Origin: Candidatus Sumerlaeia bacterium
GTDB taxonomy: Bacteria > Sumerlaeota > Sumerlaeia > SLMS01
DNA length: 10,275 nt
Reading direction: 5' to 3'
NCBI GenBank assembly: GCA_038208905.1
Contig: JBBQYG010000147.1
Span: forward strand, 1-10,275
A model generated the notes under the pieces. That model did no database searches and had not been told where the DNA came from. It worked only from the letters and a program-made list of their open reading frames with translations. A program made the position numbers and the translations under genes. Below are positions 7,461 through 10,275 of the stretch, in pieces (the first letter of the stretch is position 1; the number at the start of each line of letters is the position of its first letter).

Positions 7461-8369
7461 CTACATCAGTCCGAGGCGGGTGAGTTCGTCGAGAGAGCTG
7501 TCGCGGGCGAAAAGGAAGTCTTCATTCTGCTCCACCGGATGCGCCGGCCCTAGGGCGACGCGGCGGCTCGTGCGAAAGCGCATGGAGAATGGCCGGTAGC
7601 CGTGGCTGGCAAGCAGCTCGATCAGCTCCGCTGCGGAACTCCCCGCGCGGGCCAGCATCGCCGGATTGATTTCAGCCAGGATGAAGGCCGGGGCGCCGGG
7701 GGAAGCCAGCCAGCGCGACGCGCCACGGAAGGCCAGAGTCTCGGAACCTTCGATATCGATCTTCAGCAGGCGAATCTTGCCCCATGTCGCGGAGAGGTCG
7801 TCCAAACTGGCACTGGCCACCTCGACAGTGCCCGTAGCGCTGCCATCGCGCTGGATGAACGAGTCGCTCTCCGCCTCGGCGCCGTGGAGGAGCAGTCGCT
7901 CGCCCCCCTGATCCGAGAGTGCAAAAGCATGAACCTCGATCTTGGCCAGACCCGAGTTCAGAGATGCGTTTCTCCTGAGACGCACAACGGTCGCCGGGTT
8001 CGCCTCGATCGCATGAACAACGCCCTGCGTGCCAACCAGCGCCGCCGCCTGAACCGTGAAAAAGCCGAGGTGCGACCCCGCGTCCACGAACGTGTCACCG
8101 GGCCTCAGCAGCCGCGCAAGCAACAGACGGCTCTCCTCGCCGAACCACTCGTAGGCCATCAACCGGTGTATATACGATCCCAGATTGTAGGAAATCAACC
8201 CGTCGCCGTGGGGAACGATCTGCTCTCCGGCGAATGTTCCGGGAAAAGCATGACGAAGCGCCCCATCCAATACCCTGTAACCGCGACGCCGACCGACCAG
8301 ATAGGGCATGGCACGCGCACAGCGCAGCCCCACCGTTGGACGTTGCCGCCCAGCCAAGGAAGCGCTCAT
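7461..8369 (-). CDS. FkbM-family SAM-dependent methyltransferase
   Basis: LRPGDTFVDAGSHLGFFT, VHAIEANP, AFALSD, SLDDL, IRLLKIDIEGSE..AFRGA, ILAEINP. ATGA overlap with the moaA stop. Confidence 0.88.
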   Translation of the reverse strand: MSASLAGRQRPTVGLRCARAMPYLVGRRRGYRVLDGALRHAFPGTFAGEQIVPHGDGLISYNLGSYIHRLMAYEWFGEESRLLLARLLRPGDTFVDAGSHLGFFTVQAAALVGTQGVVHAIEANPATVVRLRRNASLNSGLAKIEVHAFALSDQGGERLLLHGAEAESDSFIQRDGSATGTVEVASASLDDLSATWGKIRLLKIDIEGSETLAFRGASRWLASPGAPAFILAEINPAMLARAGSSAAELIELLASHGYRPFSMRFRTSRRVALGPAHPVEQNEDFLFARDSSLDELTRLGLM

Positions 8370-9391
8370 CCCCCGATCGCCTGCATCCCGCGCGCAAACG
8401 GATCAGTCAGCGCCTGCATCGCGTCATAGCGTTCCGCCCGCGCCAGAAACTGGTGGCGCATCGCGTCGGCCACGGCGGAGCGGTCGCGGGCGTGGATGGG
8501 GATCGAAAGGTCCTGCTCATCGGGAGAGAGCAGGCACGCCTTCAGCGCGCCGTCGCTGGTCAGGCGCAGCTTGTTGCACGTGAGGCACTTGGTGTTGGAC
8601 ATCTGGCTGATGAAGCCGATGCGCGCGGTCGTCCCGCGCACGCGATAGGTCGTGGCGGGGCCATAGCCCGTGCGGTTCCCCGCGGCGGCGCCATCGCCTT
8701 CCGGCTCCAGCATGTATCCATCCGCCGCCAGCAGTTCCATCGCGTCCCCGGCAGAGAGGAAGTGGCGGTGGAAGTAGTCCTTGTCGCCAAAGATCGGCAT
8801 CAACTCGATGAAGCGCGCCTCGATATCGTGCCCGTGGGAGAAGCGGACGAATTCGCCCAGCTCGCCATCGTTCACTCCGCGCAGCAGCACGCAGTTTACC
8901 TTCACCCGGCGAAACAGCGCGCGGGCCGCGCGGATCCCTGAGAGGCAACGCTCCAGCGATCCGCCGCGCGTCAGCTCCGCGTAGCGCCCCGCGTCGAAGC
9001 TGTCCAGCGACACGTTCACCCGCGTCAGCCCGGCGCGATGGAGTTCCCCCGCCATCGCCGCCAGCCGGATGCCGTTGGTCGTCATTGCCACGTCGGTCAG
9101 GCCCGCGTGGCGGCGGATGCCGGCGATCCACTCCGTCAGACCCGGGCGGATCGTGGGCTCGCCTCCAGTCACGCGGATTGCCTCCACGCCCAGCTCGTTC
9201 ACGCACACATCCACCAGAAAATCCAGGTCGTCCCAGCTTAGCCGATGCGGATGCGTGGTGGCGCACCCCTTTACGGGATTGCAATAGGAGCAGGAAAGAT
9301 TGCACAGGTCCGTCACCGACACGCGCACATACCTCAGCCGCCGGCCATAGCGGTCGATCACGGGGGCGGGACGTTGGAGGGCGGCAATCAT
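8366..9391 (-). CDS. moaA: GTP 3',8-cyclase MoaA (molybdenum cofactor biosynthesis, radical SAM)
   Basis: DRYGRRLRYVRVSVTDLCNLSCSYC (CX3CX2C), RVTGGEP, MTTNG, RVNVSLDS, RFIELMP, CLTCNKLRLTSDGALKAC (CX2CX13C), C-terminal MQAIGG. Start placed at ATG 9391. Confidence 0.95.
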   Translation of the reverse strand: MIAALQRPAPVIDRYGRRLRYVRVSVTDLCNLSCSYCNPVKGCATTHPHRLSWDDLDFLVDVCVNELGVEAIRVTGGEPTIRPGLTEWIAGIRRHAGLTDVAMTTNGIRLAAMAGELHRAGLTRVNVSLDSFDAGRYAELTRGGSLERCLSGIRAARALFRRVKVNCVLLRGVNDGELGEFVRFSHGHDIEARFIELMPIFGDKDYFHRHFLSAGDAMELLAADGYMLEPEGDGAAAGNRTGYGPATTYRVRGTTARIGFISQMSNTKCLTCNKLRLTSDGALKACLLSPDEQDLSIPIHARDRSAVADAMRHQFLARAERYDAMQALTDPFARGMQAIGG

Positions 9392-9512
9392 GCGAACAAG
9401 GGAAGCGAAAACGCGGCCCCTTGGCGAGCGATTTCCGCCCCCCTGGGCCCGCCAATCTCCCGATTGGCGCCGGGGCCCGCAGCCTCGATGGTTCCGCCGC
9501 AGGCTAACTCTA

Positions 9513-9653
9513 GAGCGGTTCTCGAAAATCTTGTCGCGATGGAGGACGCCGTAAAAGAGTATCGTGGGCATCTTGCCCGCGTGTGGGGGCGACGGGGCTC
9601 GGGCGAGACGCCCAAGCTACGTTGGAATACGACAGGACTTTCGAGAGTCACTC
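9513..9653. mobile_element. 141-bp non-autonomous MITE with 24-bp imperfect TIRs flanked by TA
   Basis: Left end GAGCGGTTCTCGAAAATCTTGTCG (9513-9536) vs reverse complement of the right end GAGTGACTCTCGAAAGTCCTGTCG (9630-9653): 19/24. TA at 9511-9512 and 9654-9655. The adjacent repeat copy shows the uninterrupted site. Confidence 0.82.
9559..9620. repeat. Diverged GTAG-family inverted REP doublet inside the MITE
   Basis: GTATCGTGGGCATCTTGCCCGCG (9559-9581; 18/23 to the REP at 1960) and reverse complement GTAGCTTGGGCGTCTCGCCCGAG (9598-9620; 17/23), 16-bp spacer. Confidence 0.8.
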
Positions 9654-9791
9654 TAACCCAGCCGATCAGGAGATCGGCGCCCCCCTGGGCCCGCCAATCT
9701 CCCGATTGGCGCCGGGGCCCGCAGCCTCGATGGTTCCGCCGCAGGCTAACTCTGACCCAGCCGATCAGGAGATCGGCGCTCCCAATTGGCG

Positions 9792-10275
9792 ATGCCCCTC
9801 CGCTTCCTCTACTTCGACGCCGGTTTCACGCTGCTGCACCCGTGGCCGTCGGTGGGGCATCACTATGCGGAGGTCGCGGCGGAGTGGAGCGTCTCCGCTT
9901 CGGCTCCGGCGCTGGACGCCGCGTTCCGGGGCGCATGGCGCGGTGCGCTGGCGGGGCGGGATAGTGCGCTCCCCTATGGCCGGAACCTCGCGGAGGCGCG
10001 GGTCTTCTGGGCGGGAGTCGTCACGGAGTGCTTTCGTCTCGCAGGCGCGGCGGCCCCGACGGAGCAGGCGTTCCACGATGCCGTCTTTGACCGCTTTGCG
10101 GAGGCCCGGTGCTGGCGTCTTTATCCCGATGTGAATCCCGCGCTGGCGCTTCTGGAGGAGCGGGGCATCCCCTTTGGCGTATTAAGCAACTGGGATCCTC
10201 GGCTTCGGCCCGTGCTGGATGCCCTGGGGTTGGGCCCCCGGCTGTCGGCACTGGTGATCTCCAGCGAGGCCGGGT
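9792..10275 (+). CDS. HAD-superfamily (IA, REG-2-like) hydrolase, 3'-truncated by the window end
   Basis: Not in the ORF track. Translated by hand: MPLRFLYFDAGFTLLHPWPSVGHHYAEVA..WRLYPDVNPALALLEERGIPFGVLSNWDPRLRPVLDALGL..VISSEAG. Open to the window end; HAD motif I (FDAGFTL) and motif II (LSNWD). Confidence 0.88.
   Translation, partial: MPLRFLYFDAGFTLLHPWPSVGHHYAEVAAEWSVSASAPALDAAFRGAWRGALAGRDSALPYGRNLAEARVFWAGVVTECFRLAGAAAPTEQAFHDAVFDRFAEARCWRLYPDVNPALALLEERGIPFGVLSNWDPRLRPVLDALGLGPRLSALVISSEAG

Follow-up and report, generated by a model that had tools for sequence, protein, structure and literature searches.

The 400-bp spacer between moaA and a divergently oriented HAD-like hydrolase gene in a Candidatus Sumerlaeia genome raises the question of which kinds of repeats fill it and how they came to lie inside one another. 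The stretch of DNA analysed here (the window, 10,275 nt) is the entire contig C147 of a 4.24-Mb assembly, hereafter G000, that comprises 301 contigs, the shortest of them at least 1500 nt long, with 64.5% G+C and 93.9% completeness. In the window, moaA is a minus-strand gene at 8366-9391, with scores of 103 bits for Radical_SAM and 75.7 bits for Mob_synth_C, and the hydrolase gene, truncated by the contig end, runs from 9792 to 10275 on the plus strand with a Hydrolase score (25.8 bits) just below the 26.4 cut-off. Directly downstream of moaA, with a 4-base stop overlap, lies a gene for an FkbM-type methyltransferase (7461-8369, minus strand; Methyltransf_21, 65 bits). The spacer itself (9392-9791) is made up for the most part of a 349-bp repeat block that starts 44 bp from the moaA start codon. 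A host function for these repeats finds no support: scanning 9000-10275 against Rfam (E up to 1) returned a chance-level miRNA match and nothing else, and a promoter and terminator consensus scan of 9300-9900 returned none. Our results make it probable that the block is a stack of repeats, with a hairpin-doublet element (family 2) as its base, a tandem duplication of that element, an IS630-type MITE inserted in the first copy and an inverted pair of REP sequences carried inside the MITE as a passenger.

The block is organized around a 99-bp unit that is present twice. The first copy is split into a left part of 76 nt (9436-9511) and a right part (9655-9677), while the second copy (9678-9776) is uninterrupted, and the arrangement is reflected in an exact 76-nt direct repeat (9436-9511 and 9678-9753, spacing 242 nt) and in a 35-nt repeat at 94% identity (9650-9684 and 9749-9783). 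The two copies are identical at 98 of 99 positions, the single difference being an A at 9655 and a G at 9754. Copy 1 holds 143 extra bases, consisting of a 141-bp body (9513-9653) and one TA, and reads CTC-TA-body-TA-ACCC, as against CTC-TG-ACCC in copy 2, where the TG falls at 9753-9754. The left TA (9511-9512) takes its T from the last base of the left 76 nt, and the right TA (9654-9655) directly precedes the remainder of copy 1 (9656-9677). An initial sequence-only reading of this DNA had proposed two 99-bp units that differ at one base, the first with 143 additional bp and the second uninterrupted and devoid of the target TA, and the repeat coordinates agree with it on each of these points.

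The insert is a genuine multi-copy, TA-flanked MITE, small and non-coding. Its 24-nt ends (9513-9536 and 9630-9653) match as inverted repeats at 19 of 24 positions, the same count obtained in the sequence-only reading, and at 20 of 24 in the consensus of the 18 complete copies, from which the window body departs by one base. Folded as single-stranded DNA, the insert pairs its ends and forms two inner hairpins (-29.4 kcal/mol, z -2.52), with 2 of 200 shuffled sequences folding equally well. A BLASTN search of G000 with positions 9513-9653, which the sequence-only reading had put forward as a check, recovered 37 copies, window copy included, at 96.5-100% identity to the window copy (identity of at least 90% across at least 100 nt), a repeat number far beyond chance; two more diverged matches of at least 100 nt showed 71% and 81% identity. 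Among the 37 copies, 18 are complete and internal, 2 are truncated and 17 lie at contig ends, and on this count many of the contig breaks in the assembly are due to the MITE, a point of relevance for its annotation. Pairs of MITE ends at a single fixed spacing number 29 in G000. Tabulation of the flanks, likewise proposed beforehand, revealed TA in 25 of 30 readable left flanks and in 26 of 27 right flanks, against a genomic TA dinucleotide frequency of 1.46%; the base preceding TA is a pyrimidine (T/C) in 19 of 25 cases and the base following it a purine (G/A) in 25 of 26. Flanks and family suggest a TA duplication at the insert in the window, where the sole available empty site is the one that reads TG. 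In relatives matching both moaA and the HAD-like gene the matches fall on separate contigs, with the genes not neighbours, and the relatives examined therefore provide no orthologous empty site. At another locus of G000 (C46:25701-26040), about 2.4 MITE copies are arranged head-to-tail in an array that reaches the contig end, with neighbouring copies sharing one TA.

A search of 40 relatives did not find the MITE, returning only two matches of 24-34 nt, both to the REP part, and a 26-nt MITE pattern had no match in a species-representative genome collection from which the records of the window genome itself may be absent. With a looser pattern of the MITE ends, 45 of 60 metagenome loci were found to carry the MITE, and of 57 flanks compared with G000 contigs, 53 align at 83-100% identity, mostly at 94% or above; these loci hence represent the same population rather than independent hosts.

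The metagenome loci also bear on the affiliation of the MITE ends. Among 21 loci with the end pattern and without the MITE, the sole complete insertion sequence (IS) is a 1.12-kb element (L075) with TA on both sides. Its ends agree with those of the MITE in 20 of 24 bases; because the locus was found with a MITE-derived pattern, 19 of these 20 were fixed by construction. In our reading, the likeness extends some 8-10 nt further inward at the end that bears the transposase stop codon. The encoded protein (356 aa) scores 110 bits against DDE_3 and contains HTH_32/33/29 domains. It has matches in 18 of 74 other genomes of the phylum, including near full-length homologues at 55-58% identity in four of them (G014, G016, G021 and G072). 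The homologue copies in G016 and G072 are TA-bounded, and their inverted ends, which start TAGAGCGGTT and TAGAGCGTTTCTCAGAAAGATTGTCC, are close to the MITE end, TAGAGCGGTTCTCGAAAGTCTTGTCG. A second metagenome locus (L041) was considered as a MITE partner and rejected, given that it carries an IS256-type (Mutator family) transposase adjoining a lone end-like motif, and the remaining non-MITE pattern loci have no partner end inside the locus. Taken together, these comparisons support the assignment of the MITE ends to an IS630-family lineage, and the TA-MITE that the sequence-only reading had envisaged, with IS630/Tc1-mariner as one of two candidate groups, is borne out by copy number, flanks and ends. 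The search for a full-length IS with the same ends that it had suggested succeeded in part, in that L075, G016 and G072 hold elements with similar ends and the source genome holds none.

Within G000, neither tblastn nor a protein search with the L075 protein detected a matching transposase, IS-length pairs of MITE ends (3 mismatches) amounted to noise alone, and the ends of the genome's own IS630-family element (C162; DDE_3, 81 bits) are unlike those of the MITE. Since the assembly contains no contig under 1500 nt, a repeat-bounded IS of 1.1 kb could have been filtered out of it. The C162-type element and the MITE do meet at two sites, C162:1150-1330 and C57:21465-21599, where G000 shares flank and TA with the near-identical metagenome contigs L099:1600-1802 and L103:2440-2700; G000 continues with a C162-type IS630 end and the metagenome contigs with a MITE end, which suggests either insertion of a C162-type IS into the CTAG formed where a MITE ends, or polymorphism of the two sites. 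A title in the reference list of PMC2170065 (Tenzen and Ohtsubo 1991) refers to an IS630-associated transposon that prefers TA in CTAG.

The core of the MITE consists of two inverted REP hairpins with their heads facing outward. Arm 1 (9559-9583, plus strand) has a GTAT head and the stem-loop GGGCA-TCT-TGCCC, and arm 2 (about 9596-9620, minus strand) has a GTAG head and the stem-loop GGGCG-TCT-CGCCC; the arms differ from each other and from the REP consensus by compensatory stem changes. The sequence-only reading had described an inverted GTAG-REP pair, and it was correct as to the inverted pair and the GTAG family, one of the two heads being GTAT. Degenerate heads are permitted according to PMC3733652. 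A 25-nt REP core searched with at most 5 mismatches produced 145 matches in 86 clusters of G000, among which 29 single hairpins and 10 inverted doublets are free, with no MITE end within 75 nt. A 24-nt REP pattern (at most 1 mismatch) produced 76 matches in G000 and none for its reversed control; among 75 genomes from the phylum, it occurs at least once in nine, one of them G000. The 25-nt arm of the MITE itself has 35 exact matches in G000, 33 of them within MITE copies, so that nearly half of the best-matching REPs of the genome (some 33-35 of 76, numerator and denominator being drawn from different queries) sit in MITE copies.

G000 encodes two Y1_Tnp genes, one of which, on contig C219 (37-38 bits, cut-off 23, with a visible HVH motif), is flanked by the GTAG REP on both sides (183-207 and 939-963), each REP with an inverted partner. 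This arrangement supports the view that the inner pair of the MITE belongs to the GTAG REP family associated with the C219 Y1/RAYT gene, and it agrees with the association between GTAG REPs and RAYTs that the sequence-only reading had pointed out. The other, stronger Y1_Tnp gene (67 bits; C12:8100-9300, also indexed as L001) lies between two direct hairpin blocks of about 110 nt whose GCTTAAGC/GCTTCAGC centres define a third palindrome family, and 270 bp away is an old copy of the MITE in which a REP arm is duplicated. A further locus (C159:1275-1552) displays six REP hairpins of alternating orientation in 278 bp, a BIME-like array with intervals of 108 nt between its three minus-strand copies.

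Every one of the 37 young MITE copies contains the REP doublet, as does an older, diverged subfamily (C10, C12, C208, C190, C68, C24 and C220) with a spacer about 28 nt longer, and no MITE end-pairs lacking REPs were seen in G000. Its presence in young and old copies indicates that the doublet is a fixed passenger of the MITE and came to this site inside it. The sequence-only reading had the kinds of elements right and erred over the REP doublet, which it took for a recent layer of its own: the three independent recent layers that it had stacked at the locus are contradicted by a doublet that travelled inside the MITE. In two other genomes (G024 and G016) REP doublets occur free and without MITE-like ends, and G016 also holds the IS; the lineage of G000 is thus the most likely origin of the REP-MITE chimera.

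The 99-bp unit is a member of a different palindrome family. Family-2 elements have the ends (C/A)TGGGAACGCC and GGCGTTCCCA(G/T), with a hairpin in each end and a variable spacer in between; the hairpin follows the pattern GGAACGCC-NNN-CTCCCG-NNN-GGCG, with two inverted copies per element, and no target duplication is evident. In the window, the left hairpin of copy 1 lies at 9446-9469 and the right one, which extends into the junction between copies, at 9661-9683, and copy 2 has hairpins at 9688-9711 and 9759-9782. G000 contains 20 family-2 doublets of 93-125 nt, in line with the prior suggestion that the 99-bp unit is part of a second palindrome family. The stem shows clear covariation. Of 59 hairpins collected with at most 2 mismatches, 42 have Watson-Crick pairs throughout the three variable stem positions, with five triplet types; when partners were shuffled, this number averaged 9.6 and never exceeded 19 in 2000 trials. 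The exact pattern is found in 9 of 75 genomes of the phylum, spanning six families including that of G000, the reversed control being 0 throughout; a 24-nt pattern of the unit had no match in metagenome contigs, where the records of the window genome itself may be absent. Outside the family-2 heads, the three adjoining bases in the 20 doublets are mostly CTG/ATG on the left and CAG/CAT on the right, and many elements end ATG...CAT. At window position 9779, two 61-nt records of another sequencing run (X1) differ, with C or T, the T giving the family-2 consensus GGCGTTCCC, which indicates that strains vary within the right end of the element.

A partner gene for family 2 was sought at Y1 loci. 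Family-2 hairpins flank neither of the two Y1 genes in G000 and none of the 20 Y1 loci inspected out of 34 matches in five other family-2-bearing genomes, and no RAYT link was found at these genes. The hairpin cassette of PF05635 (23S_rRNA_IVP, GxxExxY) was also discarded as a source: the sole PF05635 gene of G000 (C172:1245-1532, within C172:1000-1700, also L029) is enclosed by inverted G/A-rich and C/T-rich arms of different sequence, unrelated to the repeats of the window. A preference of the MITE for family 2 was rejected as well. Only the window copy, 1 of 37, lies within 150 nt of a family-2 hairpin, with about 0.17 expected by chance, and the nesting of one family in the other can on this basis be regarded as incidental.

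How the unit came to be doubled can be read from its borders. The 8 nt immediately upstream of copy 1 (CGCCCCCC), which lie outside the family-2 ends, recur at the junction (9678-9685). The right border of copy 2 is CGCTCCC, and the last bases of the family-2 element (CGCTCCCAA, 9777-9785) are the partner of 9436-9442 in a 6-of-7 microhomology. A junction that repeats the upstream flank, combined with this microhomology, fits a local duplication and not a second insertion, and local duplication at the 7-bp microhomology is the most likely origin of the tandem. The succession of events that we propose would then begin with a family-2 element of about 100 bp, two inverted hairpins around a variable spacer, as the host layer. 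This element and 8 nt of upstream flank would then have been doubled with a period of 99 bp, probably by slippage or by unequal exchange between the two stretches of CGC(C/T)CCC microhomology. The 141-bp non-autonomous MITE would have entered the TA of copy 1, the TG of copy 2 offering no target, and the inverted GTAG REP doublet (REPIN) would have joined an ancestral MITE in a single capture and been copied along ever since. While the IS630 family and the ends of the MITE are read from the comparisons above, the act of transposition is proposed by analogy with IS630 and ISY100, whereby a DDE transposase acting in trans would have moved the element by cut-and-paste with duplication of the TA.

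Whatever the order of these events, the TA/TG difference requires one substitution, and the probability that the sole difference among 99 positions falls on the target dinucleotide by chance is about 2 in 99. Under the simplest reading, already offered by the sequence-only one, the uninterrupted copy beside an active MITE is likely to be the one without a TA target; copy 2 would persist uninterrupted because the MITE enters only where TA is present. The alternative of TG as an excision footprint was rejected by reasoning, given that copy 2 is exactly of unit length and that ISY100-type cleavage leaves additional bases, as reported in PMC2170065.

The tandem structure must be weighed against the possibility that no single chromosome carries filled and empty copies side by side, with the contig instead stringing together two single-unit alleles. 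Evidence on this point comes from the assembly itself and from four other sequencing runs (X1, X4, X5 and X7) that contain near-identical DNA as 31-mer contigs. In X1 (record 1) and X4 (record 9), contigs that start in moaA continue unbroken past 9436-9465 and reach 9511 and 9506, respectively, which should not happen in a 31-mer graph of a tandem genome, where a fork is expected at that point; moreover, the X4 depths of the record entering the MITE (4.0) and of the record across the TG site (3.2) sum to about that of the shared left contig (6.9). No record in any of the four runs covers 9678-9711, leaving the duplication junction unconfirmed by other-run contigs, the unit is uncovered in the contigs of X5 and X7, and the records that pass from the unit into the MITE (X1 record 2 and X4 record 10) have just 28 letters on the MITE side, below the 31-letter bar. 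Yet the same runs also speak against the two alleles: X4 record 16, which crosses the TG site and continues towards the HAD gene, and two X1 records (6 and 7) show no break at 9755, where a filled single-unit allele is predicted to merge and where continuity should not be seen under a simple one-unit polymorphism. The four runs, in addition, differ from the window at several bases and are not its source. In the assembly, overlaps of exactly 141 nt with another contig were detected at 42 of 602 contig ends, and overlaps of 140, 127, 77, 55 or 27 nt at none of them, which implies an assembler word of 141, longer than the 76-nt repeat, and hence a path made of read-supported words, every step being a 141-mer present in the reads. 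The junction, GATCGG followed by CGCCCCCCTGGG, is furthermore not buildable from two single-unit alleles, which overlap by 7 nt with one mismatch. We accordingly judge a contig strung together from two alleles to be unlikely, and retain the tandem as the likelier structure, to which strain variation may contribute, noting that tandem and single unit can interconvert, as an exchange within the 76-nt or the 22-nt repeat yields a single empty or filled unit.

Two other explanations concern the identity of the insert. The whole 141-bp element could be a long REPIN moved by a RAYT (HUH) enzyme, with TA reflecting target preference and no DDE enzyme involved. G000 does encode a RAYT with cognate REPs and lacks a matching DDE transposase, and section 7 of PMC3733652 reports REP dimers regularly enclosed in long palindromes, none of them REP-less. 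Against this stand the homology of the MITE ends to those of TA-flanked IS630-family elements and the occurrence of REPs without MITE ends, both in G000 (29 free singles and 10 free doublets) and as doublets in G024 and G016. IS200/IS605-type enzymes are not known to duplicate their target or to depend on inverted repeats at the element ends, which also counts against this explanation, and we deem it very improbable. Descent from an IS5-group element (IS427/IS1031 type), an alternative mentioned in the sequence-only reading, draws on flanks that fit YTAR and on MITE ends that begin GAG, such ends being typical of some IS5 subgroups; with a duplication of 2 bp, TA, and ends that match IS630-family elements with DDE_3 transposases, it found no support and its probability is in our estimation negligible. 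The IS630-type MITE with a REP passenger is thus the identification of the insert that we carry forward.

Each component of this MITE has parallels in known systems. Correia elements of Neisseria and RUP of Streptococcus pneumoniae are named as IS630-derived MITEs in PMC2817692, and ISY100 constitutes the biochemical model for the IS630 type, with insertion at TA and normal duplication in 34 of 39 products (PMC2170065). As with the IS630-derived MITEs so described, the window element is a non-coding sequence of about 100-150 bp with inverted ends, TA flanks and many near-identical copies, and its ends are related to those of IS630-family ISs; unlike Correia and RUP, it has at its core a doublet from a RAYT-linked REP family, and its assembly is without a cognate transposase. 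With the REPIN-RAYT systems (PMC3116915, PMC3337134; GTAG super-family in PMC3733652) it shares GTAG-head hairpins, inverted doublets and the presence of such repeats on either side of a Y1 gene, and it departs from them in that the share of best-matching REPs lying inside the MITE, about 33-35 of 76 by different queries, can spread with a DDE-type shell.

The closest precedent found is provided by the GTAG-15 dimers of Anabaena variabilis and the CGTC-1 dimers of Halothiobacillus neapolitanus, which are enclosed in long palindromes (PMC3733652). There, as here, a longer palindromic shell surrounds REP dimers and no REP-less shell is found; that shell is presented as a target palindrome, with no transposase named in the corresponding section, whereas the shell in the window has IS630-type ends, TA flanks and full-length relatives. 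The stacking of unlike repeats in one spot further recalls the insertion sequences that target REPs (Tobes and Pareja 2006, as cited in PMC3184786). In those cases, going by that citation, the IS lies within a REP, while in the window the REP lies within a transposon, and the transposon within another repeat in just 1 of 37 copies. In our literature search, we found no description of an IS630-type MITE that encloses a REPIN and no paper about repeats in this phylum.

The locus itself is a curiosity, and each of its layers is a familiar form of bacterial selfish DNA; novelty resides in the chimera of a REPIN with an IS630-type MITE and in an orphan family of hairpin doublets. The chimera offers a concrete case in which the spread of a transposon roughly doubled a REP family, and identification of the shell through its IS630-family ends provides a mechanism by which REP dimers could have come to lie in long palindromes as described, with no enzyme named, in PMC3733652. 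The analysis also adds, from an uncultured phylum, a hairpin-doublet family with clear structural covariation for which no partner gene was found. Beyond this, we tentatively suggest, as a reading that we hold possible rather than probable, that the REPIN, as a permanent passenger of the MITE, can be spread by both HUH and DDE enzymes, and that family 2 constitutes a class of hairpin doublets without a RAYT, moved by some other enzyme. If so, family 2 would have a patchy distribution within one phylum (9 of 75 genomes), compensatory changes preserving its stem, and two unrelated enzymes could spread the same DNA, allowing REP numbers to rise without the RAYT; this would touch on the idea of REPIN populations as dependent on one RAYT and inherited together with it.
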